DNA of 64,000 nt. It comes from a phage. Positions 1,900-28,096 of this stretch are shown here, in pieces. A program made the position numbers and the translations under genes. The notes beneath the pieces were generated by a model, which did not search any database, had not been told where the DNA came from, and saw only the letters and a list, made by a program, of their open reading frames with translations. The stretch is taken from the sequence record PZ402301.1; one strand, 5' to 3'. The stretch's first letter is position 1, and each line of letters opens with the position of its first letter.

Positions 1900-2052
1900 T
1901 TAAACCTCAATTGATGCATTCATATTTAACTTGTAACAGTAATAAACTCCACCCTATAATAAGCGTTGGAATCATACAAGGAACTGTTACGCTATAGTAT
2001 ATACTTATTATAATCATCAAGATTAAAAGCAATACTGCTAAAATTTTGCTTT

Positions 2053-2304
2053 TCATTCCTTCTCTCTGATGATAATTACTTGATTTTGCTGTACAGATTT
2101 TTTAGTTTCACCTGCAATTGACCAAATAAAGGTAATAAACCAACCAATAATTGACCAGTTAAACAGTAAAGACGTGAAAAAGATTCCTACTGTCGATTTT
2201 GACCCACGCATCAAGGCGATGAACCACGGAAGCATGTATATAATAATAGCCAACACGCCTGAAACTAAAACCATAAAAATTGAACCTGCTACTAAAGTTT
2301 CCAT
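2053..2304 (-). CDS. imm: Immunity (superinfection exclusion) membrane protein
   Basis: 83 aa, two hydrophobic helices, located between genes 42 and 43 as T4 imm (83 aa). Confidence 0.7.
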   Translation of the reverse strand: METLVAGSIFMVLVSGVLAIIIYMLPWFIALMRGSKSTVGIFFTSLLFNWSIIGWFITFIWSIAGETKKSVQQNQVIIIREKE

Positions 2305-2311
2305 GTTTTCC

Positions 2312-2692
2312 TCACTTAGTCAAATTTTTTACACATGAATTATAAGAATTCACTACATACTCCATCGGAGCATTTTTACCAGTACGCCATTGGTAATTAT
2401 TAGCCCAATTAGCCCAAAGTTCAGCACAGTAATTTTCAATTTTTTCTTCACGCGTAATCACATCTGAATTACGATATGCTTGTGCAGATTCATCTGGACG
2501 AATAGCTTCGTCAAAATTCGCCTGCATTTGTTCTACTGTCTGTTTTGGAGCCTCTTTATAACACTTGACGTTAGGATTATAAAATTTGCTTGAACAGTTT
2601 ACAATTTTTCCTACATCAGACTGATTTACTACTGGTCCTTGAGCTACACAACCAGTAAGACCCAATGCAATAACCAAAATAGCGATTTTCAT
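2312..2692 (-). CDS. Putative lipoprotein (signal peptide MKIAILVIALGLTGC with lipobox); imm.1 position
   Basis: ATG at 2690-2692 follows an early promoter; track ORF 2312..2881 extends upstream through the promoter so the internal start is preferred. Confidence 0.5.
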   Translation of the reverse strand: MKIAILVIALGLTGCVAQGPVVNQSDVGKIVNCSSKFYNPNVKCYKEAPKQTVEQMQANFDEAIRPDESAQAYRNSDVITREEKIENYCAELWANWANNYQWRTGKNAPMEYVVNSYNSCVKNLTK

Positions 2693-2715
2693 TTCATTCT
2701 CCAAATCCGCATCAG

Positions 2716-2780
2716 TTGATAGTTGTATAGTACCACAAAGGAACCGGGATGTAAACAGTTTTGTGAAAAAATTTTTAATG
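2716..2780 (-). promoter_or_regulatory. T4-type early promoter (sigma70: -35 GTTTACA, 17-nt spacer, -10 TACTAT, A/T-rich UP element)
   Basis: Reverse complement reads aaaaattttttcacaaaactGTTTACAtcccggttcctttgtggTACTATacaact; same motif recurs through the early region. Confidence 0.6.
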
Positions 2781-2835
2781 AATTCCAGATGCCCAGAATC
2801 ATCTATTTTTCCTAAGTATAGATTTATATTACTTG

Positions 2836-2851
2836 TATGAAAAAGGGACCC
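2836..2851 (-). terminator. Intrinsic terminator-like hairpin after gene 43
   Basis: gggacc-cgga-ggtccc; on the minus transcript followed by UUUUU. Confidence 0.6.
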
Positions 2852-2873
2852 GGAGGTCCCTAGATTTATTCTA

Positions 2874-5570
2874 TCAGCCAAACAAGAAGTCTAACGAAGC
2901 TTTTTCCTCATAGTCCATACCTGCCGATTCACACATGCCCGCAAGCGGTTTAACAAACGATTTTTGGAACAAAGTTGAGTAGTCAATCCAAGACAGTACA
3001 TCAGAACGAATTTCTTTTGGAAGTTCCGTACCCGACGGCCAAGCAATGCACTTGTCACCAAATGGATTTCCCTCACGTAATGGAAGAACCATTACCTTAT
3101 TTCCATCCAAAATTGGAGCTACACCTAAACCACTAACAGCTCGACGATAAGTTAGCACCCCACGAATGTGGAACGGGCATTTAAATCCTGGCCAACCTTT
3201 ATCGTCATATTTCGCTATATCGTTCGCGGTTTTTACTTCAGCAATAACTTTATAGTCAAGTTGACGATATTCTTTCTCAAAGTTCTTGTAGTATTCTTGG
3301 ACAGACTCTTCGCCTTCCTGAAGAATACGACGAATACTTTCTTCGAGAGCTTCTTGTACTGCTTTTGGTGTTGAACTCTGCTGAGTTTCCATACCCATGA
3401 TTTTTAGATGCGGTTCAGCAAATCGTTTATCTTCCATATCATAAACGTTCAGAGCATAACGTTTTTTCGCTTTCCAAAATCCACCAACACCCTTTGAACC
3501 AAGTGGAGGGCAAGAAATAGCTTCACGGTCCATATGCATCAGATGCTCGCGGTTATTCATATAATCACATAACTCACGATATGCAACATCAATCATAGGT
3601 TCCATCTTTTTCTTACCAAACTGATTCATAAATTCAACTAAATCATTTTGTTCTTTAAAGCGGTCAAGACCTACTTTTTCAATAACTTTATCTACACAAA
3701 CATATACCGAATCAGTATCACCCGCTGCGATGAAATCTTCACCATCAGTTCCACACACTTTATTCAGATATTCATTAATTTTACGAGCAATCCACTGAAT
3801 ACCAACTTGACCAAAAATTGTGATAGCAGTAGCATTTCGCAAATCATAATAGCGGAAATGAATATTACCAAGAGCACCATAAAGACTGTTGATAAGAATT
3901 TTACGGTTCAGCTGATTTGTGTTAGCAAGTGTAGCTGCTTTTTCACATTCTTCGATCAGACTATTAAGAACAGATTCAGTGTAATTCGATAATTCGTTTA
4001 AGAAATCATCATTGAATTTAACATATCGTTCAACTTCTGGTTTAGTTGAACAAGACCCTGCACCTTTCATAATAATCTTTTTAATAGCTTCGGCATTCAT
4101 TTCTTCAGCGAACATTTTCTTTTTCCAATCTTTACGTTGGAAAAATACTTTAGCGATTTCCTTTGGAATGATACCTTCTTGATGCTTATCATACATCCAT
4201 CCATTAGGAGAACAAGAATATTCATCACTTGGCTTAGGAGCTGTTCCTGCGATATATTCATGAATTGGATGAACTTTAAACTGCCCACGAATAGTCTCAG
4301 GACTAATGTTAACCTGACGAATAATGCTAGGATACAGAGACGTCAAGTCAAAACTCATAATGTATCGACGAGCAATCGGTTTAGGTTCAAATACAAATGC
4401 ACCTGGAAAACTCTGTTTAACGTGCGAACCTTGTTGAGGAATAACCTTATGTTCGCCTTTCAGTGAGTTAAAAATAATAGCGTCCCAAGTTTTAATAGGA
4501 CTCATTACACCAGAAAAAGGCATTTTAGCGTAATAAGACATACTTAAAACTAGATCAATAAACCCACGAATTTTATCAATTGCTTGAACTGATTCTACGT
4601 CAATGATGTTATAACTAATGTATCGTTGATGATTAGTCTCACGAAGTTTATTAATAGGACCATCGTACGGCAATTTACCTTTTTTGGTTTCGTGCTGAGC
4701 AACTGATTCCAAAGAGAATGATGGCAAATTAGTAAATGCGAATTTTTTGTACAAATCTAAATAATCAAGAATAGATACGCCATCAATAGAATAAATTTCT
4801 TTGCTACCGTACATATTTTGAATTAGTTTAGATTTTACTCGACCGATTGGAGAGAAGCGTTTCATACTACGTTCACCGAGAACCATTTTAACACGATTCA
4901 TGATATACGGAACGTCAAATCCCTCAATATTCCAACCGGTAAAAATAGCAGGTCGTTTCTGTTCCCAGAGATTAATATATTCCATGAGCATATCGCGCTC
5001 ATTATCAAATGGCATATAAATTACTCGGTCAAGAATTTCTTGAGGAACTTCATCACCACCTTCACAGTCAAGCTTAGCAGCTAACTTTGCATCCCATTTT
5101 GATACTGAACCGTACATTGAATTCAACAAATCAAAGACGTAAAAACGGTCGTCAATTGAATCATAATGAGTGATAGCATCAATTTCATATTCTGCTTTCA
5201 TTGGGTCAGGAAATTTATCACCAGTAACCTCAATGTCACAGTTAGCTACACGAACAAATTTTCGGTCATAAACAATTTCTGAACCATATGTATCACTGAT
5301 ATAAGCGAGTTTAAAATCGTTCATACCAAGAGCTTCGAGACCGATGTCTTCCATTCGCTTCATCCAGTCTCGTGCATCTTTCATTGATGGAAATTTTTGA
5401 GGAGCGCAATTTTTACCGTAAATGTCTTTGTACTTTGACTCTTCCTTACAATGCCTAAACATAGTCGGAAGATATTCTACTTCACGAGTACGTTCCTTTC
5501 CGTTTTCATCAATATAACGCTCAACAATATTATTTCCGACTGTTTCGATAGAGATATAAAATTCTTTCAT
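2874..5570 (-). CDS. 43: DNA polymerase (family B) with 3'-5' exonuclease
   Basis: 898 aa, MKEFYISIETVGNNIVERYIDENGKERTREVEY... matches T4 gp43 sequence and length. Confidence 0.97.
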   Translation of the reverse strand: MKEFYISIETVGNNIVERYIDENGKERTREVEYLPTMFRHCKEESKYKDIYGKNCAPQKFPSMKDARDWMKRMEDIGLEALGMNDFKLAYISDTYGSEIVYDRKFVRVANCDIEVTGDKFPDPMKAEYEIDAITHYDSIDDRFYVFDLLNSMYGSVSKWDAKLAAKLDCEGGDEVPQEILDRVIYMPFDNERDMLMEYINLWEQKRPAIFTGWNIEGFDVPYIMNRVKMVLGERSMKRFSPIGRVKSKLIQNMYGSKEIYSIDGVSILDYLDLYKKFAFTNLPSFSLESVAQHETKKGKLPYDGPINKLRETNHQRYISYNIIDVESVQAIDKIRGFIDLVLSMSYYAKMPFSGVMSPIKTWDAIIFNSLKGEHKVIPQQGSHVKQSFPGAFVFEPKPIARRYIMSFDLTSLYPSIIRQVNISPETIRGQFKVHPIHEYIAGTAPKPSDEYSCSPNGWMYDKHQEGIIPKEIAKVFFQRKDWKKKMFAEEMNAEAIKKIIMKGAGSCSTKPEVERYVKFNDDFLNELSNYTESVLNSLIEECEKAATLANTNQLNRKILINSLYGALGNIHFRYYDLRNATAITIFGQVGIQWIARKINEYLNKVCGTDGEDFIAAGDTDSVYVCVDKVIEKVGLDRFKEQNDLVEFMNQFGKKKMEPMIDVAYRELCDYMNNREHLMHMDREAISCPPLGSKGVGGFWKAKKRYALNVYDMEDKRFAEPHLKIMGMETQQSSTPKAVQEALEESIRRILQEGEESVQEYYKNFEKEYRQLDYKVIAEVKTANDIAKYDDKGWPGFKCPFHIRGVLTYRRAVSGLGVAPILDGNKVMVLPLREGNPFGDKCIAWPSGTELPKEIRSDVLSWIDYSTLFQKSFVKPLAGMCESAGMDYEEKASLDFLFG

Positions 5571-5628
5571 AGATATTCCTTAGTTTATAGCCCGAGTTAT
5601 TAGGCTCTTGATATATTATACTCCAAAT

Positions 5629-5646
5629 AAGGGGCCGAAGCCCCTT
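5629..5646 (-). terminator. GC-rich stem-loop (UUCG-type tetraloop on the transcript)
   Basis: aaggggccgaagcccctt. Confidence 0.5.
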
Positions 5647-5648
5647 GC

Positions 5649-5870
5649 TTAAATTAATACCATTTGTCGGTGAAAAATTGTCAATCCATCTGCATTAATT
5701 GACTTAACCACTGCGGTAAAGTGTTTTTGTTCTGGGTGAACTAATTTTTGAAATTCTACCTGAAATTTTAGTTGGAGATTTTCTGGTAAATCAAAAAGTG
5801 TTTCTGTTGCAGAAAGATTATATTTTTCTTTAAGAGACGCCATGTATTCTTGTGGGGTTATAGCAGTCAT
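5649..5870 (-). CDS. Hypothetical small protein between regA and gene 43
   Basis: ORF 5649..5912; internal ATG at 5868-5870 sits 1 nt after regA stop; followed by hairpin 5629-5646; no recognised homolog. Confidence 0.3.
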   Translation of the reverse strand: MTAITPQEYMASLKEKYNLSATETLFDLPENLQLKFQVEFQKLVHPEQKHFTAVVKSINADGLTIFHRQMVLI

Positions 5871-5871
5871 A

Positions 5872-6240
5872 TTAATTACCAATCGTATATTTTGGAACGA
5901 GTTTCCATTCATGTTTTTGTTTAAAAGAAATAACTCGGAAGTTATTGGTTAAATCTTTCATAAAAGTTCTTTGACCAGGAACGATTTCAATCAGTCCCCA
6001 ATCTTCTAACAGCCATGCAATCGAATCACGACGAACTTCATCTTCTTCTGTCATTTCAACCTGGCGACCATCCATACGAAGCATTTCTTTAAAATGAACG
6101 ATATAGTATAGTCCTTTTTTCTGAAGAATATGACAGGACTGATACAGAACTTTATCTTTATTATTAGCAATTCCCATGCGAGTCAAAGTTTCTTTTACTT
6201 TCAGAAAATCTTCAGGTTTTTTAAGAGTAATTTCAATCAT
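5872..6240 (-). CDS. regA: Translational repressor RegA
   Basis: 122 aa, MIEITLKKPEDFLKVKETLTRMGIANNKDKVLYQSCHILQKKGLYYIVHFKEM... matches T4 RegA. Confidence 0.93.
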   Translation of the reverse strand: MIEITLKKPEDFLKVKETLTRMGIANNKDKVLYQSCHILQKKGLYYIVHFKEMLRMDGRQVEMTEEDEVRRDSIAWLLEDWGLIEIVPGQRTFMKDLTNNFRVISFKQKHEWKLVPKYTIGN

Positions 6241-8958: not shown

Positions 8959-9147
8959 TTAGTCATAATAATCAGTAACAGTCCAAGCTTCATTTCTGTT
9001 GGACATTATTTTCGTATATTCTGATTTAAATGCATTCTTAAGCATAGATTCAGTAACTATATGCTCTTCATTAGAAAAATTATTTCTCAGAATATATCGT
9101 TTTATTTCAGGAATAGTTAATAGATGCTGTCCAGTTGAATATTCCAT
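8959..9147 (-). CDS. Hypothetical protein (45.2 position)
   Basis: 62 aa ORF between rpbA and gene 46. Confidence 0.5.
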   Translation of the reverse strand: MEYSTGQHLLTIPEIKRYILRNNFSNEEHIVTESMLKNAFKSEYTKIMSNRNEAWTVTDYYD

Positions 9148-20947: not shown

Positions 20948-21394
20948 TTAAAATGCTCGGTCAGAAAAAGAAATTTGAGTTTCAAGCCATTCAATATATT
21001 CTGCCGCAGCTTGCATCAAATTTCCTTCATAACCATCGTTATTTTCTTGTGCAGCTAATTTAGCTAATGCATATGAAATGCGTTCACCTTGAAAAGCGGC
21101 TTTAGGTTTATGAATAACTTGATCAACTCGTTCTACGACCTCTTCAATTTCGCCATTTTCTACTGATTCAGTATTCCACAAGCACCAATACGTAATTGGC
21201 TTATCGTAGATGTTAATAATCTTTCCATCAGAAAGTTCAATTTCAATAATTCCAGTATCAGGTTCTATATCATCTTCGCATTCTTTTGCAAGTTCACGAA
21301 CTTTAAAGACAGCACCTGCACTAAGTTCCGGCCAGTAATTACACAGCCCTGTATCAGCACGATTAATTCTAAACCACTTATCTACTGTAATCAT
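20948..21394 (-). CDS. pin: Protease inhibitor Pin-like protein (assigned by position)
   Basis: Track ORF 20948..21412 starts at TTG; first ATG at 21392-21394; position after gene 49 matches T4 pin but the sequence is not recognised from memory. Confidence 0.45.
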   Translation of the reverse strand: MITVDKWFRINRADTGLCNYWPELSAGAVFKVRELAKECEDDIEPDTGIIEIELSDGKIINIYDKPITYWCLWNTESVENGEIEEVVERVDQVIHKPKAAFQGERISYALAKLAAQENNDGYEGNLMQAAAEYIEWLETQISFSDRAF

Positions 21395-21517
21395 GTCCCA
21401 TCTCCATATCAATTAAGTCATTTATCGTTGGTTCATTATATACTGTTTCTTCATCAGTGTAAACCGGTTCTTCCGGCTCTGGCTCTACTGTTTTCCATCT
21501 AGCCGCCCACCAAGGTT

Positions 21518-21838
21518 TTATAGCGTAATCCATTCTCGTATTGTCTGAGTTACTACACGTTCACGGGGCTCGACTAGTTCAACAGTCGGAACTGCATAAT
21601 ACCAGTCAGAATGGTAAGAACCTGAGCGAGATTCATTTACGGAAACATGTACATTATGTTTCGGACTAAAATAAACGCACTGCCGATATTGGCATTTGCC
21701 ATCTTGTACCCAATCTTCTATTTCGACAGGTTTAAGATAATCCGAAAAATCGAAATCATAATTTTCTGAAAATGCATCATGGTCTTCGATGATTTCACTC
21801 AGAACTGCATCAACATCTAATTTATTTTCAATAGTCAT
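21518..21838 (-). CDS. Hypothetical acidic protein (49.x region)
   Basis: 106 aa ORF. Confidence 0.45.
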   Translation of the reverse strand: MTIENKLDVDAVLSEIIEDHDAFSENYDFDFSDYLKPVEIEDWVQDGKCQYRQCVYFSPKHNVHVSVNESRSGSYHSDWYYAVPTVELVEPRERVVTQTIREWITL

Positions 21839-21849
21839 TTGTCACCACT

Positions 21850-22059
21850 TTAATTTCGCAATTTATTAAGTTCTTCATAATCAATCCAGGATTCTAATCC
21901 TGATGGCAAATCAGATTCAATTTCCCAAAGAAGCTCTTCAATTTTCTGAAGACGATCTAATTCTTCGGCTGGAATAGTAACCATTGACGGAGTTCTTGAT
22001 ACACTAATATCGTAAATCATATTTACCCCAGTTTGACCATGCAATCGCCGTATTTCCAT
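21850..22059 (-). CDS. Hypothetical protein (49.x region)
   Basis: 69 aa ORF. Confidence 0.4.
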   Translation of the reverse strand: MEIRRLHGQTGVNMIYDISVSRTPSMVTIPAEELDRLQKIEELLWEIESDLPSGLESWIDYEELNKLRN

Positions 22060-22238
22060 TTAGAAATAGACTTTTCACCGTTAGAATAATAAACTTCGAG
22101 TTTAGCACGATTATTTTTAATTTGAATAACCTTTGCTGTCATCAAAGTTCCATATCCATAATAAACTGCAACCTCATCGCCTACATATACCGCGCTTCCG
22201 CGGTAGTCATGGATATAATCAGTTCCTTCGAGCATCAT
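22023..22238 (-). CDS. Hypothetical protein (49.x region)
   Basis: 71 aa ORF, stop overlaps nrdC start. Confidence 0.4.
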   Translation of the reverse strand: MMLEGTDYIHDYRGSAVYVGDEVAVYYGYGTLMTAKVIQIKNNRAKLEVYYSNGEKSISKWKYGDCMVKLG

Positions 22239-22498
22239 TTAAAGTATTCCCGCAATTGGTCAAATCCACCAATATGACTTCCATCAGGAGCAAATACTTG
22301 TGGCATTGTCAGCCCAATTTGAGTATCACGACCCAGTTTAGTTAGAAGCTCAGCGATTTTCTCATCATCAAAAACACCTTTTTCCGGCATAATGTTGATA
22401 AATTCAAACGGCTGTTTCTTCACAGTCAAGAGACGTTTTGCATTATCGCAATACACACATTTATGGATGTTGCTATCATAACCATATACTTTAAACAT
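22235..22498 (-). CDS. nrdC: Phage thioredoxin/glutaredoxin NrdC
   Basis: 87 aa as T4 NrdC; active site CVYC. Confidence 0.9.
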   Translation of the reverse strand: MFKVYGYDSNIHKCVYCDNAKRLLTVKKQPFEFINIMPEKGVFDDEKIAELLTKLGRDTQIGLTMPQVFAPDGSHIGGFDQLREYFK

Positions 22499-22499
22499 A

Positions 22500-22742
22500 T
22501 TATTCCTTAATTCCTAGTACTTGTTTAAAAGCCTCGTCGTAATCAAGACTTTGACCCGTTTGTTCTTTATGTTTGTATATAATATCACTTACTTCTGATA
22601 GCATATTTTTATATGAACGAGTTAAAGCAGATTTAAGCACGCTGTATCTATCAGGAAATTTACCGTGTTCATTATAATACGCTATTGCTAATTCACGGAC
22701 TGCCTTTTCAGCAATCTCCATATATTCTTTACGCTTTGTCAT
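22500..22742 (-). CDS. Hypothetical protein
   Basis: Track ORF 22500..22877; internal ATG (MTKRKEY...) abuts the stop of the upstream ORF. Confidence 0.4.
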
Positions 22743-22743
22743 T

Positions 22744-23133
22744 TTAATCCAAAATATTATTAGGCATTGGTTGAACACTCGCAAGTTCTTTAAAGAACTC
22801 AGTAGAGTCAGGTAATTTAACCATTTCCGGAGCATGCTTACTAAATTTATGTTTGCAATGACGGCATTTATATTCAAGTTCCGGTTTACGCCAGTTAATC
22901 AATTGAACCTGTTCAGTACCGCATTCAGGACAATTAGGAACGTTTTTAGAAGCCCTTTCGCGACGTTCAACCATAGCCATAATAGCATCCCAGGCTGGAG
23001 GTTTAAAATCTAAATCGTCACAACCATGAATCTTTCCACGCATTTCTAAATCGTCTTCTTCACCAGCCATAATAATTTTAATTAGACTGGAATTACTTGA
23101 AGCTGCAATATCTTCTAATAGACGCTTTTTCAT
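22744..23133 (-). CDS. Hypothetical Zn-ribbon protein
   Basis: 129 aa; CPECG...CRHCKH four-Cys motif. Confidence 0.45.
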
Positions 23134-24059
23134 TTCAGTACCTCAATAGCATTACGTAAACCATTTGCTTTTGCATTAAGAGCTTTTAACAATTTAGTGT
23201 GTTCGGCAATTTGGGCTTCAACTTCAATCAAACGAGCATTGAGATATTCGCGTTCTTCGCTCAAGCTATCAACCTTTTCTACTTTAGGTTCTTTTACAAC
23301 TGGCTTATATGTATTAGGGTTCTTCAGTTTAATTAGAATACGTGAACTGTATAACATTGAACCATTATTTTCGATTTCGTCATACATTTCTACTACGTCC
23401 ATGATTTTTAACATCATGCGGAGTTTATAAGATAACGAACGAATAGTTTTGTTGTGCTTATTAATTTCTCTAGCTGTCATGGTGCCGAGATTACGTGAGT
23501 AATAATAAGGAACCTGGATATTAATTAATACTGATGAACCACCTGGCTTGTGTGTTACTTCATCAGCAATAACCCAGTCCTTAACATGAACTGTATTTGT
23601 ACGGTCATCGCCCGCGGTAAATAGTTTACGAGCATGCTTAAAAAGCATATTCACTTGGTCATTGAATTGACAAGCAAATTTATCAGCAAATTTAGTTTCA
23701 GGAATGGTAGATAACCAATCAGCCAAATGGGTCTTTTTAACATCGTTAACAATAGTAAATTCAACTAAATCGGTTATAGATGTCGTAGATTTAATGAAGC
23801 TCGGCTTCATAAAGTTTTCAATGTTATCACGAGCTACAGTAGAAGATAACATACGAGAACGTTTAAACCATTCAAGCAAATTGCCTAACGAATAAGAATA
23901 AGCGTTTTGAGTATCTTTACAGATATGATTTTCCTGGCCAACATATTGAAGGAAATCACGAAGAATATTATTGATTACTGCTCTGTGTCCGATCTGATAA
24001 TTACGGTGTTTAGTAATAAGACTGTCAAAATAATCAATATAATGTTTACGAGTTTTCAT
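23130..24059 (-). CDS. Paralog family member 1 (N-terminal globular domain plus C-terminal coiled-coil)
   Basis: 309 aa; C-terminus ...[39 protein letters not shown]; N-terminus MKTRKHY similar to member 3. Confidence 0.55.
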   Translation of the reverse strand: MKTRKHYIDYFDSLITKHRNYQIGHRAVINNILRDFLQYVGQENHICKDTQNAYSYSLGNLLEWFKRSRMLSSTVARDNIENFMKPSFIKSTTSITDLVEFTIVNDVKKTHLADWLSTIPETKFADKFACQFNDQVNMLFKHARKLFTAGDDRTNTVHVKDWVIADEVTHKPGGSSVLINIQVPYYYSRNLGTMTAREINKHNKTIRSLSYKLRMMLKIMDVVEMYDEIENNGSMLYSSRILIKLKNPNTYKPVVKEPKVEKVDSLSEEREYLNARLIEVEAQIAEHTKLLKALNAKANGLRNAIEVLK

Positions 24060-24111
24060 GTTCTTCTCACTTGGTTAATGATTTATACTCCGAGCCATCC
24101 TTGGCTTTAAA

Positions 24112-25113
24112 TTACTTAATTAACTGTAAAGCTTGTTCAAGACGATCCAGGCGATTAACAGATTCTTCCCAAATCCTTTTAGCCTGCTCATATTCTTTCT
24201 GCGCTTTATTAGAAATTTCTAGAACTTCTTTATAAGTCTTTTCTAGTGCAATAACTTCTGGACGAATTTCTACAGGTTCAGGCGAATCATCAAGATTATC
24301 CATTAGTTCCTCAAGTGTAATTTCTTCTTTAGGAGTATTCACAATTTCATCACATTTTTGTTGGTAAATTTCTTTATCAGTCGGTGAGTATGCACATTTC
24401 ACTTCACGAAGACTAACTACAATTTTATATCCTTCCCAACCGCATATATTCTTAAAAGGATACGTATGAATATTTTCTACTGTTTCCATACAAAGTAATG
24501 CGGTTTCTAATTGACGAGTTATAGTGCTAGCAATTGAGAAAAATTTATTAATGTTCTTTTGGTTAGTTTCTGGTGTAAAAAATCCATAATTCACAAAAAT
24601 AGATACTTTATTTTTATCAAGTTCATATTCTTTTATGATAATCATATCAGAAGCCAAAGGATGAATTTGACGATAATTGCCATAACATAATTTAGAAGCT
24701 GATTTTAGAATTTGCTTTTTGAAAAGTCTGAAATTACTAATCCAACGACGAGTAAAAATATTCTCAGGGTCTTCTTTATTATTAAGATGATAAGAATTAA
24801 CATCACCGAACCAATTATATCCTACTACATCTTTGGTTCGTTTAATTTCTTTCCCAAAATTACCAAGAATATCCCGATTAACCAAATATGAAAGAAGACG
24901 AGAACCTTTAAAGGTTTTCTTAATGTCATCTTTATCCGTACGACTAGAAATTTCACGAACTTCGTGAATAAATTTGCTGGAAGAAACAATGCTTACATCA
25001 ATATTATTGAGCCATCGATTGATAATGGAAATAACGATATTCTGACTAGTCATAGGTTTAACTTTATCATCAATAACGCTATTGAATGATTTGATATATT
25101 CGTTACGAGTCAT
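24112..25113 (-). CDS. Paralog family member 2
   Basis: Start taken at MTRNEYIKSF; shares RWISNFRLFKKQILKSASKL with member 3; C-terminal coiled-coil. Confidence 0.55.
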   Translation of the reverse strand: MTRNEYIKSFNSVIDDKVKPMTSQNIVISIINRWLNNIDVSIVSSSKFIHEVREISSRTDKDDIKKTFKGSRLLSYLVNRDILGNFGKEIKRTKDVVGYNWFGDVNSYHLNNKEDPENIFTRRWISNFRLFKKQILKSASKLCYGNYRQIHPLASDMIIIKEYELDKNKVSIFVNYGFFTPETNQKNINKFFSIASTITRQLETALLCMETVENIHTYPFKNICGWEGYKIVVSLREVKCAYSPTDKEIYQQKCDEIVNTPKEEITLEELMDNLDDSPEPVEIRPEVIALEKTYKEVLEISNKAQKEYEQAKRIWEESVNRLDRLEQALQLIK

Positions 25114-25139
25114 ATTAATCTCCTCAGTAGAAAGTAAGA

Positions 25140-25175
25140 ACATTATACCACATCCTTGTGGCAAAGTAAACTAGT
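25140..25175 (-). promoter_or_regulatory. T4-type early promoter between paralog genes 2 and 3
   Basis: Reverse complement: tagtTTACtttgccacaaggatgtggTATAATgttc. Confidence 0.55.
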
Positions 25176-26199
25176 TTAGTGCATTTAGTGCATTGTTCAG
25201 TTTAGAACGTTGCTTCGTGAGATTTTTGACTTTTTCTTGAGCTTTTTCTAGCATCTTTTCAGCTTCTAACACTTCATTAGTTGCTTTAACGAGTTCATCA
25301 TCTACTGCCTTGATAGACTTCTCAATCGCATCGGCATGCCATTTTTCAACAGGTTTAAGACTCGGATTTTCAACAGGAAGAAAATTCACTTTATTGAATT
25401 TCCATGCATCCTTATTACCTGAACTATACATCCAAAATTTAGGATCGTTTGATGAGTAATTGGATAAATTTAAATTTAAGTTATCTTGCACTTCCTGCTT
25501 TTTCTCTTGCGGGACTTCGTCCTTTCTCAAAAATTCATATTTAAATGAAACGATCATATCAAGTTCATATGTTGTTGTGTCTAATTTAAATCGTTCGAAA
25601 TGTTGTGAAATCTTAGACTGAACAGCAGCAACAACATCCATATACTTAAATGCTTCTGTCAACTGCGATTTAAGGCATTCGCAAATTGAAAGAGAATTTT
25701 TTGTATTAGGTTTAAAGCTAATTCGTGCAGTTCTGTTATTTTCTTTTAATGGTCTTACTTCCATCTGAAGAGTATAACCATCAAATTTCAGGTTCTTTAA
25801 GTTAATGTCAGAACCTTTTAATCGACTAGCCGTCGACAAAATTTGCTTTAATTGTCTACGGAACAGAGCAATAAATCTCCATTCAATACGATAATGATTT
25901 GGATTGAAAAATCCAGATGATAAATCGACCTTACTTTGACCAACGCCTTGAACAAATAGAGGATTTTTATAATCAATGGTTTTACAGAAATCGGTGAGTT
26001 GCTCACGAGCAGTCATTTGTGTAATATACCCCGCTTTACTAAAATGACGTAACCATTCACTGCTATTCGTATACTTAAAGTGATGAATAACACGATTAAC
26101 TTTATCAGGGTCTAAATTATTTTCACACAAAAATGTCATAACATCACGAGTATAGCTGGCGTTACGAACCATATCTTCAATTTGAGAACGAGTTTTCAT
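25171..26199 (-). CDS. Paralog family member 3
   Basis: 342 aa; RIEWRFIALFRRQLKQILSTASRL; C-terminal coiled-coil ...LEKAQEKVKNLTKQRSKLNNALNALN. Confidence 0.55.
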   Translation of the reverse strand: MKTRSQIEDMVRNASYTRDVMTFLCENNLDPDKVNRVIHHFKYTNSSEWLRHFSKAGYITQMTAREQLTDFCKTIDYKNPLFVQGVGQSKVDLSSGFFNPNHYRIEWRFIALFRRQLKQILSTASRLKGSDINLKNLKFDGYTLQMEVRPLKENNRTARISFKPNTKNSLSICECLKSQLTEAFKYMDVVAAVQSKISQHFERFKLDTTTYELDMIVSFKYEFLRKDEVPQEKKQEVQDNLNLNLSNYSSNDPKFWMYSSGNKDAWKFNKVNFLPVENPSLKPVEKWHADAIEKSIKAVDDELVKATNEVLEAEKMLEKAQEKVKNLTKQRSKLNNALNALN

Positions 26200-26207
26200 G
26201 GTGTTCC

Positions 26208-27098
26208 TTAAGATTTAAGTAAATCAACAATTTTAATTAACTTTTCACGCTCAGATTTAGCTTTACTACTCAATCCAGATAGTCTGAAAATTTCATCGTC
26301 ATATTGTTGAATAGAAATATTCAGCTCTTCAATCTGTTTATTAAAATAATCAATTTGTTCAGAATGTTTTTCGTTACTACGAACTGGTACAGGTTTTGTA
26401 GGCAATGTAGTTGAACTGGATTCATCCGGGCGATAAATTAAAATACAACTTGAACCAATAGGGCATTTTGCACCAGATGAATATTCTAATGTTCCAGCTT
26501 CTTTTAAAACTTCAAAAGCTAAACAGAGATGATGCCCCATATTAACATAATCTGTAGAGTGAGCTCTGATGTAATAATCATCGCCACGAATACTAAATTT
26601 AAAGCATTTAAGGTCTTCTGTATTATTGGTCTTAAAAATCATCTGTTTATCTAGACCTTTAGCTAATCGAGCGCCCAATGCTAATAATCGTCGCTGATTT
26701 TCCCACAAATCCGCAATCATTTGGTCGAATGATAATTTTGGCATTAGTCGACCATAAAGGTCATATCCTTTATTGTAATTACGAAGGATTTCACTCGCGT
26801 TAATACGAGACAATGCTCCAATTTTATTAAGGGCTTTCATAATGCGATTAGATAAACTCATTCCAGATCCATTTGTTCGCTGTAAATGTTTTTCTAATCC
26901 AAATCCAATATCAACTTTAAACTTATCTAAAATTTCTGCATGAACATCTCTGTCAATAACATTCAAATCCAAAGTTGGGTTAAATCTATGAAAAAACTTA
27001 TCTGGCTCTCCACGGCGAAATACAGTCCATTCATTCATCATTTTTTTATTAGCTAAAGATTTAATTACTGCATTGACATTATTAATTACTACTGACAT
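26208..27098 (-). CDS. Paralog family member 4 (more divergent)
   Basis: Start taken at MSVVINNVNAV; DLWENQRRLLALGARLAKG; C-terminal coiled-coil. Confidence 0.5.
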   Translation of the reverse strand: MSVVINNVNAVIKSLANKKMMNEWTVFRRGEPDKFFHRFNPTLDLNVIDRDVHAEILDKFKVDIGFGLEKHLQRTNGSGMSLSNRIMKALNKIGALSRINASEILRNYNKGYDLYGRLMPKLSFDQMIADLWENQRRLLALGARLAKGLDKQMIFKTNNTEDLKCFKFSIRGDDYYIRAHSTDYVNMGHHLCLAFEVLKEAGTLEYSSGAKCPIGSSCILIYRPDESSSTTLPTKPVPVRSNEKHSEQIDYFNKQIEELNISIQQYDDEIFRLSGLSSKAKSEREKLIKIVDLLKS

Positions 27099-27105
27099 AT
27101 TTTCC

Positions 27106-27513
27106 TCACTCAATTTCAATTTTACTAAATACACAGAATATGATTGAACAGACTACATAAGCACCACACACAGATTGAACTAATACCATCCCAAAGAACC
27201 AAACAATATTATCAAACAGTGTCTGTTTTACGTCGAAAGGACGTAAACTTACAGTAATATTATCACCTTTTTCTATTGAAGAATACATCTCTGGGGAAAT
27301 ATATTCACTAAATCTATAACCGTCTTTGAGTTCATATACGGCAATAAACGATAAACTAGACCCTTTTCCTTGTGTTCCTGTAATGGTATTAACTACAGTA
27401 ACATCATAATCTTTATAATGCATATAATCATTAATTGCGTAATAACCGTATGCAACTACTACACATAAACAACATATCAATAAATTCAATCTTTTAATTA
27501 TCAACTGTTTCAT
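27106..27513 (-). CDS. Hypothetical membrane protein
   Basis: 135 aa with N- and C-terminal hydrophobic helices. Confidence 0.45.
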   Translation of the reverse strand: MKQLIIKRLNLLICCLCVVVAYGYYAINDYMHYKDYDVTVVNTITGTQGKGSSLSFIAVYELKDGYRFSEYISPEMYSSIEKGDNITVSLRPFDVKQTLFDNIVWFFGMVLVQSVCGAYVVCSIIFCVFSKIEIE

Positions 27514-27529
27514 AATAATCTCAATTAAA

Positions 27530-27570
27530 AGGGCTTAGAACCATTATACCATCCTTGGTATAAAGCGGTT
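27530..27570 (-). promoter_or_regulatory. sigma70-type promoter (-10 TATAAT), possibly a middle promoter (MotA-box-like GCTTTA near -30)
   Basis: Reverse complement: ccGCTTTAtaccaaggatggTATAATgg. Confidence 0.4.
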
Positions 27571-28096
27571 ATGCGAGTACCGTCTTTAACCGTTCTTCAA
27601 ACTTCCGAAGAGTATTTTGGCGTTCAGCTCTTTGCTTTTTGTAAGTTTCAATACGCTCTGAAATGAGAGTGTATCGTTCATTTACTGATTCTTTCATAAA
27701 ATCAGGAATTTCACGAGAAGCTTTAATCTCGTCAAATTTATCAATAACAGCTTGCTCTTCAGCAATTAAGTTATCATACATTAAAATATCTTTCTTGATG
27801 AACTCAATATCTTCTTGAGTTACACGAGATAATTTAGATGCTTTATCCTTTTTGTACTGTTCGTTAGTATCACGAGACCAGTGTAATGTACGATTTTTAT
27901 TCGTATTTTTGTAAATTTCTACAATACCAATCTCATCAATAATAACGATCCAATTCCAACGGGATTTGTAAATTTGTCCTCCATCAACTGTGATTTCACC
28001 TCCGATTGAGATGTCGTTAAAGAACTTGCTTTGTGCTTCAGATTTAAATTTACCATCGTTGTAATTTACCAAGTTGAAAATATCTTTAGCGTTCAT
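27569..28096 (-). CDS. Hypothetical protein
   Basis: 175 aa ORF. Confidence 0.45.
   Translation of the reverse strand: MNAKDIFNLVNYNDGKFKSEAQSKFFNDISIGGEITVDGGQIYKSRWNWIVIIDEIGIVEIYKNTNKNRTLHWSRDTNEQYKKDKASKLSRVTQEDIEFIKKDILMYDNLIAEEQAVIDKFDEIKASREIPDFMKESVNERYTLISERIETYKKQRAERQNTLRKFEERLKTVLA

Follow-up and report, generated by a model that had tools for sequence, protein, structure and literature searches.

Genes at the nrdC.3-nrdC.6 locus

The DNA analysed here is a 64,000-nucleotide stretch from a phage (record PZ402301.1; hereafter referred to as the window), and the element under study is a block of four consecutive genes on its minus strand. A preliminary description, made from the letters alone, had interpreted this block as a tandem array of paralogues. 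The list of open reading frames (ORFs) bore out four consecutive minus-strand ORFs at this place, encoding proteins of 309, 333, 342 and 296 amino acids (aa). The 4-kb stretch had nucleotide matches in 657 phage records, nearly all of them Tequatrovirus, with the top match 97.3% identical over the whole length, and the window's phage is a Tequatrovirus. By sequence, T4 nrdC.3, nrdC.4, nrdC.5 and nrdC.6 have their Tequatrovirus orthologues in these four genes (hereafter referred to as members 1, 2, 3 and 4, respectively). The same names are used for these genes in T4 and in annotated relatives, such as phage ime09; a comparison of annotations thus answered the question, left open earlier, of whether T4 has the same four genes. 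They are situated immediately past nrdC (window 22235-22498), nrdC.1 and nrdC.2.

23130..24059, minus strand: nrdC.3 orthologue, member 1; 309 aa, start MKTRKHY; phrog_1435 (E 1e-115); named nrdC.3 in ime09 and T4
24112..25113, minus strand: nrdC.4 orthologue, member 2; 333 aa, start MTRNEY; phrog_1435 (E 1e-164); 92% identity to T4 NrdC.4
25171..26199, minus strand: nrdC.5 orthologue, member 3; 342 aa, start MKTRSQI; DUF7235 (419.5 bits), phrog_2351; 95% identity to T4 NrdC.5
26208..27098, minus strand: nrdC.6 orthologue, member 4, the most divergent; 296 aa, start MSVVIN; phrog_2257 (E 1.5e-151)
25142..25170, minus strand: promoter-like site of the sigma-70/T4-early type upstream of nrdC.4; GTTTAC, 17 nt, TG-extended TATAAT; consensus scan 10/12 plus TG

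Members 1 and 3 do both begin with MKTR (MKTRKHY and MKTRSQI). The nrdC.6 ORF reaches upstream to a GTG at 27134, and a ribosome-binding site (GAGGAA) is present at the 296-aa start. For nrdC.4, we retained the 333-aa start because it has a GAGGAG ribosome-binding site 7 nt upstream and because the longer alternatives begin within the promoter-like GTTTAC-17-TGGTATAAT or upstream of it. This promoter-like site is a pattern match alone, and the regional count of such sites is not above that of shuffled sequence.

Homology and shared anatomy of the four proteins

The four proteins are homologous over their globular part and their C-terminal module, the evidence being strong for NrdC.3, NrdC.4 and NrdC.5, and good but indirect for NrdC.6. 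Pairwise BLASTP among the four was significant for nrdC.3-nrdC.4 alone (E 8e-7, 26% identity over 226 residues); these two belong to the same PHROG (phrog_1435), with nrdC.5 in phrog_2351 and nrdC.6 in phrog_2257. Profile comparisons between hidden Markov models (HMMs) were based on family alignments of database homologues supplemented with the orthologues from JS98, UPEC01, wV7, mar005P1 and T4; diverse members from other genera were required, shallow alignments yielding only 0.3-29% in hhalign. For the globular domains, the C-terminal coil was cut off and a chimeric sequence, P0056, was excluded. Under these conditions, nrdC.3 and nrdC.4 matched at 98% (E 6.6e-14), nrdC.4 and nrdC.5 at 45% (E 2.2e-4, 170 columns, score 36.5, versus 11-19 for 15 column-shuffled controls of this pair), and nrdC.5 and the merged nrdC.3+nrdC.4 profile at 89% (E 2.2e-6, 176 columns, score 49.7). 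A first nrdC.3-nrdC.5 result (96%, E 2e-9) was discarded as inflated by P0056, falling to 44% (E 2e-4) on its removal, and the claim for nrdC.5 therefore now rests on the merged nrdC.3+nrdC.4 profile. Finally, for nrdC.6, the match to the merged nrdC.3/.4/.5 profile covered 108 columns of the N-terminal domain and reached 94.4% (E 8.8e-8), with a score of 59.6, whereas the reversed alignment and 20 shuffled controls scored 10-18. This alignment pairs exactly the two conserved motifs described below, and the weak pairwise nrdC.6 matches all fall in the same colinear region. The profile similarity of the globular domains is thus independent of the coil, in contrast to the similarity limited to a low-complexity coiled coil that the preliminary description had named as a refuting outcome. 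As judged from these comparisons, nrdC.3 and nrdC.4 are the closest relatives, followed by nrdC.5, with nrdC.6 the most distant.

Single-copy homologues from other phages bridge the families. The single member of Klebsiella phage Marfa (P0237, 315 aa) matched the merged profile at 98.7% (E 3.5e-16) and, in tblastn, the single member of Enterobacter phage IME523 (335 aa; about E 2e-9). The IME523 protein matched NrdC.6 at 87% (E 4e-6, 148 columns) and the merged profile at 93%, its two matches spanning 148-226 columns. A search of 1.84 billion representative proteins with the merged nrdC.3/.4/.5 profile gave 16 matches, all from T4-like phages, and the family is confined to these phages (Straboviridae and close relatives, such as Marfavirus). 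A search of the PDB with the family profile gave nothing significant, and hence no detectable relative of known structure. Within the window, hmmsearch against 246 ORFs revealed no further copies. NrdC.8 (27569-28096, 175 aa), which also has a long amphipathic C-terminal helix, was rejected as a family member (profile comparison <=1.1%), as were NrdC.2, NrdC.7, NrdC.9 and the 256-aa neighbours in IME523 and Marfa (<=2.1%). A KPV15 protein of the same length as NrdC.8 (175 aa) gave a weak match in both fold searches described below.

The four proteins have a common build, with a basic helical core bearing two motifs, a small alpha/beta subdomain, a variable linker and a C-terminal heptad helix. 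The first motif (A) reads F-K-x-S-R-x-L-S-x-x-V-x-R-D-x-L-x-x-F-G-K and the second (B) [RK]-W-x-x-x-F-[RK]-x-x-x-x-Q-I-L-K-S-A-S-K-L. The conserved basic motif of the preliminary description was recovered in the HMM-HMM alignment of all four proteins, with RRWISNFRLFKKQILKSASKL of member 2 aligned with EWRFIALFRRQLKQILSTASRL of member 3, KFADKFACQFNDQVNMLFKHARKL of member 1 and DQMIADLWENQRRLLALGARLAKG of member 4, and the isoelectric point (pI) of the segment is 9.3-10.2. The cores lie as follows.

23610..23879, minus strand: member 1 basic helical core with motifs A and B, residues 61-150, from HMM-HMM alignment; pI 9.25
24664..24933, minus strand: member 2 basic helical core, residues 61-150; FKGSRLLSYLVNRDILGNFGKE ... 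RRWISNFRLFKKQILKSASKL; pI 9.95, net charge +10
25816..26064, minus strand: member 3 basic helical core, residues 46-128; FSKAGYITQMTAREQLTDFCKT ... EWRFIALFRRQLKQILSTASRL; model helices 46-69 and 105-128; pI 10.1
26625..26843, minus strand: member 4 basic helical core, residues 86-158; MKALNKIGALSRINASEILRNYNKG ... DLWENQRRLLALGARLAKG; pI 10.2

Conservation in the NrdC.5 and NrdC.6 families is highest in the basic core and the coil, and the invariant columns of the NrdC.6 family are densest in the core. In the NrdC.4 family, the C-terminal helix is clearly the most conserved part (entropy 0.73 bits, versus 0.88 for the linker and a mid-range 0.99 for the core). Variability is greatest in the linker of NrdC.5, and in the N-terminal helices and the alpha/beta subdomain of NrdC.4 and NrdC.6; the linker is poorly conserved and probably disordered.

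All four proteins displayed heptad periodicity over their last 42 residues, with a hydrophobic occupancy of positions a and d of 0.62-0.79, as opposed to 0.13-0.22 elsewhere (shuffle p 0-0.02), a pattern predictive of a long coiled-coil helix. The register, counted from the C-terminus, is identical in all four, and when the C-termini are right-justified all the families align, including the Marfa and IME523 proteins, on a pattern of P-V-E..H, about 45 helical residues and a terminal [QE]RxKLxxA[LIM]xxLK. These shared features reflect homology of the module itself, beyond coiled-coil composition. An amphipathic C-terminal coil in all four proteins had been correctly predicted, but with a length of 35-40 residues; the actual length is 45-55 residues, distributed as follows.

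23133..23273, minus strand: member 1 C-terminal amphipathic helix, residues ~263-309; heptad analysis and right-justified comparison
24115..24258, minus strand: member 2 C-terminal amphipathic helix, residues ~286-333, ending in RLEQALQLIK; heptads and right-justified comparison
25174..25350, minus strand: member 3 C-terminal amphipathic helix, residues ~284-342, ending in QRSKLNNALNALN; model helix 286-341; heptad 0.66, shuffle p 0
26211..26372, minus strand: member 4 C-terminal helical hairpin, residues ~243-296, ending in EREKLIKIVDLLKS; model helices 243-272 and 277-295

The merged NrdC.3/.4/.5 alignment has 36 members, and 9-13 of these gave sub-threshold matches to coiled-coil families of Pfam (DUF4164, CENP-F_leu_zip and V-SNARE_C). 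A tyrosine-recombinase N-terminal SAM-like domain, detected below threshold in member 1 only (Pfam E 0.1, NCBIfam E 0.004), out of 36 family members scanned, was rejected. The T4 reference genome (NC_000866, about 9040-9110, corresponding to window 26260-26300) has a 1-nt deletion in nrdC.6 (GAGCTGATATTTC versus GAGCTGAATATTTC in the window), such that the annotated 275-aa product lacks the C-terminal coil, which is intact in the next frame. In a 173-aa protein (P0236), the last ~50 residues are identical to the NrdC.5 coil of the window and the N-terminal 120 residues are unrelated, reflecting either module shuffling or an assembly artefact.

AlphaFold models of NrdC.5 and NrdC.6 (predicted local distance difference test, pLDDT, of 70 and 78, respectively) displayed an identical succession of secondary-structure elements. 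In both, N-terminal helices, two motif-bearing helix pairs among them, precede a helix flanked by two beta-hairpins, after which a linker modelled with low confidence leads to a long C-terminal helix or helical hairpin. Foldseek searches against viral models retrieved only uncharacterised 300-375-aa proteins of other Straboviridae, from phages of Acinetobacter, Klebsiella, Yersinia, Erwinia, Serratia, Pectobacterium and Aeromonas; a Klebsiella phage Mineola protein (BFVD) was matched by both models. These data bear on the possibility that only nrdC.3, nrdC.4 and nrdC.5 are true paralogues, with nrdC.6 encoding an unrelated helical coiled-coil protein or one that acquired the C-terminal module by recombination. 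Such an origin would account for the low HMM-HMM scores of nrdC.6 against single families and for the failure of the nrdC.3/.4/.5 profile to return any NrdC.6-family member from 1.84e9 proteins, and P0236, with its NrdC.5 coil on an unrelated N-terminus, provides a precedent for module shuffling. We nevertheless consider it improbable: it is the N-terminal domain, rather than the coil, that significantly matches the merged profile, with both motifs aligned, the weak pairwise matches are colinear, the IME523 protein aligns with NrdC.6 as well as with the merged profile (148-226 columns), and the models share the order of predicted elements and a common Foldseek match.

Public databases have kept the array apart. 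Member 3 matched Pfam DUF7235 (PF23882, the NrdC.5 family) over its full length (419.5 bits, E 1e-125; curated gathering cut-off of 30 bits for the whole protein); members 1, 2 and 4 gave no match to this model even at E<=1, so that only member 3 belongs to it. In precomputed annotations, PF26897 (Phage_T4_Y04OP) is found on NrdC.4 homologues 39-93% identical to member 2, and is assigned to both the 309-aa and the 333-aa genes of a canonical array; PF26899 (Phage_T4_Y05B) is carried by all 105 of the 105 homologues of member 4 in a precomputed table (44-98% identity). The newer Pfam order along the array is therefore Phage_T4_Y04OP twice, DUF7235 and Phage_T4_Y05B. This classification, in which members 1, 2 and 4 are placed in Phage_T4_Y04OP and Phage_T4_Y05B, already joins NrdC.3 and NrdC.4, but maintains three separate families; our profile comparisons, bridging sequences and models suggest that DUF7235 and Phage_T4_Y05B can be linked to Phage_T4_Y04OP as a single superfamily. 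A search of the searchable papers revealed no statement that nrdC.3-nrdC.6 form one family. The genes themselves were already known, as was a published role for one of them (nrdC.5); what is new is that three database families are united in a single paralogous one, which makes candidates of three genes. Many GenBank records call nrdC.3-nrdC.10 "thioredoxin", and sometimes "Mur ligase domain-containing protein"; no thioredoxin model matches, and the first label evidently spread from the gene name nrdC. We flag this as a widespread annotation error.

Copy number, alleles and selection

The number of copies differs between genera. The distant T4-like genera Marfavirus and Kanagawavirus have a single copy at the same place, Dhakavirus and Gaprivervirus have three (nrdC.4, nrdC.5-like and nrdC.6), Mosigvirus also has three (nrdC.3, nrdC.5-like and nrdC.6-like), and Tequatrovirus has four. 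These steps of one, three and four copies fit an expansion by duplication in the variable nrdC region. In tblastn searches, nrdC.3, nrdC.4, nrdC.5 and nrdC.6 were found in 654, about 560, 582 and 742 phage records, respectively.

Mosigvirus has nrdC.3 without nrdC.4, and Dhakavirus and Gaprivervirus have nrdC.4 without nrdC.3. The nrdC.3 of the window is only 61% identical to T4 NrdC.3 (dS about 1) and 76% identical to the Mosigvirus allele, which points to allele exchange between lineages. Given this distribution and the greater proximity of the window nrdC.3 to Mosigvirus, the nrdC.3/nrdC.4 pair could have arisen by recombination between lineages stacking diverged alleles, rather than by duplication in place. 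The flanking genes are 92-100% identical to those of T4, unlike nrdC.3 (61%). The adjacent nrdC.2 (22744-23133) is unusually divergent and variable in length (129 aa in the window and 104 aa in T4), and nrdC.3 and nrdC.2 together form a local hotspot of allele replacement.

The ratio of nonsynonymous to synonymous substitution rates (dN/dS), determined against T4, ime09 and wV7, was 0.17-0.34 for nrdC.3, 0.16-0.27 for nrdC.4, 0.10-0.14 for nrdC.5 and 0.05-0.08 for nrdC.6; between the paralogues (15-25% identity), synonymous sites are saturated. These ratios indicate that purifying selection acts on each of the four genes within Tequatrovirus and that they are functional, with no sign of positive selection in the gene-wide dN/dS of any of the four. 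As conserved orthologues under purifying selection, they are old rather than recent duplicates. The proposal of serial duplication followed by divergence is therefore largely supported, by homology and by the genus-level steps in copy number, with the qualifications that the duplicates are old and that nrdC.3 and nrdC.4 may be stacked alleles. The contrary picture considered in the preliminary description, that of single-copy conserved orthologues with a known function, is accurate in that the orthologues are conserved (dN/dS 0.05-0.34) and in that a function is known for nrdC.5; paralogy was nonetheless found.

Rearranged arrays were also observed. Four metagenome contigs carry a contracted array (stretches 4570-5900 and 1931-3261 in two of them) in which nrdC.4 has been lost by deletion and a short KVN/QVN microhomology marks the junction of nrdC.5 (up to residue ~274) with nrdC.3 (residue ~137 onwards); the nrdC.5::nrdC.3 hybrid (the P0056 excluded above) is frameshifted into ORFs of 115 and 299 aa. 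In Shigella phage Sf25 (MF327009.1, 142971-144215), the nrdC.5 match is in two pieces over about 1245 nt and the nrdC.6 homologue (P0122) is annotated as 378 aa long, suggesting an insertion or fusion in this array. An Escherichia coli assembly (GCA_025336695.1) contains a complete T4-like nrdC region 12-33 kb into a 489,447-bp piece. Since 489 kb is close to three phage genomes, this piece probably represents contamination or a phage concatemer produced by assembly, and not an integrated element.

Host-immunity antagonism as a possible common role

T4 is the reference lytic phage, and most genes of its nrdC-rI region have, to our knowledge, no assigned role. The preliminary description listed the function of the array as unknown, which is out of date for one gene. 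The SIR2 domain of the host protein Dsr1 is thought to act on nicotinamide adenine dinucleotide (NAD+). Dsr1 combines this domain with an Avs7-type sensor, which recognises the major capsid protein of phages (PMC13581612). A T4 clone in which nrdC.5 was among the deleted sequence was viable, but did not infect E. coli ECOR17 (Srikant, Guegler and Laub, eLife 2022, PMC9391042); infection was regained on deletion of host dsr1, and cloned dsr1 shielded MG1655 (PMC9391042). Plasmid-borne nrdC.5 alone, supplied in trans, restored plaquing on Dsr1-bearing cells, and the authors termed nrdC.5 an uncharacterised early gene (PMC9391042). Member 3 is, by full-length identity (95%) and synteny, the orthologue of this T4 gene (UniProt Y05A, DUF7235), the anti-Dsr1 role of which has been known since 2022 (PMC9391042); it is of the same length class and lies between nrdC.4 and nrdC.6. 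Members 1, 2 and 4 have the domain order, basic motifs and C-terminal module of T4 NrdC.5 in common with it, but are only about 15-25% identical and belong to other Pfam and PHROG families.

Beyond nrdC.2, downstream of the array, window positions 20948-22742 carry orthologues of pin (a Lon inhibitor), 49.2 and nrdC.1, which places the array in a counter-defence neighbourhood. Of these neighbours, gp49.2 inhibits OLD (PMC13096335) and NrdC.1 inhibits Septu (bioRxiv 10.1101/2025.11.20.689424). Like the dmd-tifA-adfA "anti-TA island", gp49.2 and NrdC.1, the array genes are dispensable and lineage-restricted, lie in variable regions and, in the case of nrdC.5, counter one host system; several genes of these clusters are described as early. 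The T-even counter-defence clusters consist of small, mutually unrelated proteins, whereas the nrdC array presents a single fold in three or four tandem copies of 300-340 aa.

We propose, with a probability of about 0.6, that nrdC.3-nrdC.6 are ancient paralogues of one gene of T4-like phages that now serve as dispensable antagonists of host immunity, a role shown for one of them and extended by kinship to the other three. An accessory character is indicated by the 16 cluster representatives, the copy numbers of one, three or four, the deeply diverged nrdC.3 alleles, the chimeras, the decayed copies and the viability of the T4 clone that had lost nrdC.5. The four proteins would widen host range by neutralising host immune proteins. 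NrdC.5 may bind Dsr1 and act as its stoichiometric protein inhibitor; the analogy is with DSAD1 of phage SPbeta, which binds DSR2, a virion-triggered sirtuin-type abortive-infection sensor, and keeps it inactive. The two systems differ in host, phage lineage and target, DSR2 sensing the tail tube and Dsr1 the capsid; the family profile gave nothing significant against the PDB, DSAD1-DSR2 complexes included, and DSAD1 is therefore a functional analogue rather than a sequence homologue. The conserved core and coil would provide a common scaffold and a putative oligomerisation handle, target specificity would lie in the variable N-terminal helices, alpha/beta subdomain and linker, and NrdC.3, NrdC.4 and NrdC.6 would be directed at other defence proteins. 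In a more specific and decidedly tentative version, the array may constitute a battery of diversified inhibitors that share one scaffold, with each paralogue acting against a different immune sensor (e.g. virion sensors of the Avs7/Dsr1 type), with the coil giving homo- or hetero-oligomers that match oligomeric immune complexes.

Several points weigh against a common role in immunity antagonism. Experimental support within the family concerns NrdC.5 alone, and the searchable literature on nrdC.3, nrdC.4 and nrdC.6, queried with Pfam and locus identifiers also, contains nothing functional and no link to defence. The same literature contains no report of direct binding between NrdC.5 and Dsr1, the inhibitor step being proposed by analogy. 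The dN/dS of nrdC.6 (0.05-0.08) is unusual for an arms-race gene, and a housekeeping partner is possible for its product. The basic core could equally be a nucleic-acid-binding surface. The link of nrdC.6 to the family is weak in single-family comparisons (HMM-HMM 0.3-12%; hmmsearch E only 0.03 within the window); what carries it is the merged profile, together with the bridging sequences and with monomer models in which confidence is moderate (pLDDT 70 and 78).

Two other explanations start from the same data. The four proteins may be subunits of one hetero-oligomeric complex, assembled through the shared coil and having a single function (e.g. nucleic acid binding through the basic cores, or remodelling of a host machine), with the anti-Dsr1 effect as one of its outputs. 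The length, register and terminal motif of the C-terminal module are alike in all four proteins, the coil and basic core are the most conserved parts of NrdC.5 and NrdC.6 (the coil alone in NrdC.4), and the genes are adjacent, on the same strand and all subject to purifying selection. A fixed complex is difficult to reconcile with a copy number that ranges from one to four between genera and a membership that differs between Mosigvirus and Dhakavirus, with the coil-less NrdC.6 of the T4 reference, or with the phages that lack nrdC.4 and carry a decayed nrdC.5::nrdC.3 hybrid. Furthermore, nrdC.5 alone on a plasmid restored infection (PMC9391042), albeit in a deletion phage in which other paralogues may have remained. 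We therefore regard a single complex as rather unlikely. The second explanation is that the proteins are decoys mimicking a phage structural protein and occupying virion sensors without activating them. Dsr1 is triggered by the major capsid protein, and residues ~105-225 of the NrdC.5 model (window 25525-25887) had many weak Foldseek matches (E about 5e-3 to 3e-2, target template modelling score 0.3-0.43) to 130-aa tail completion, tail terminator and head-tail connector proteins. These matches are below a safe threshold, possibly noise, and involve the small alpha/beta subdomain only; they are to tail proteins rather than to the capsid, and were not reproduced by the NrdC.6 model. Mimicry of this kind therefore seems very improbable.

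Under the reading that we favour, that of paralogous antagonists of host immunity, nrdC.3, nrdC.4 and nrdC.6 are plausible anti-immunity candidates because they are paralogues of the Dsr1 antagonist nrdC.5, the only characterised gene of the block. Three "hypothetical proteins" thereby become specific candidates, present in about 470-500 sequenced Tequatrovirus genomes, and the contrast between scaffold and variable surfaces marks where target specificity should lie. Should the tentative version be correct, in which each paralogue acts against a different immune sensor, the array would yield three new anti-defence proteins and a hitherto undescribed inhibitor fold, and phages would thus have an equivalent of the immunomodulator multigene families of large viruses of eukaryotes. 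Therapeutic T4-like phages differ in host range, and the variation in copy number and alleles may help to account for this.

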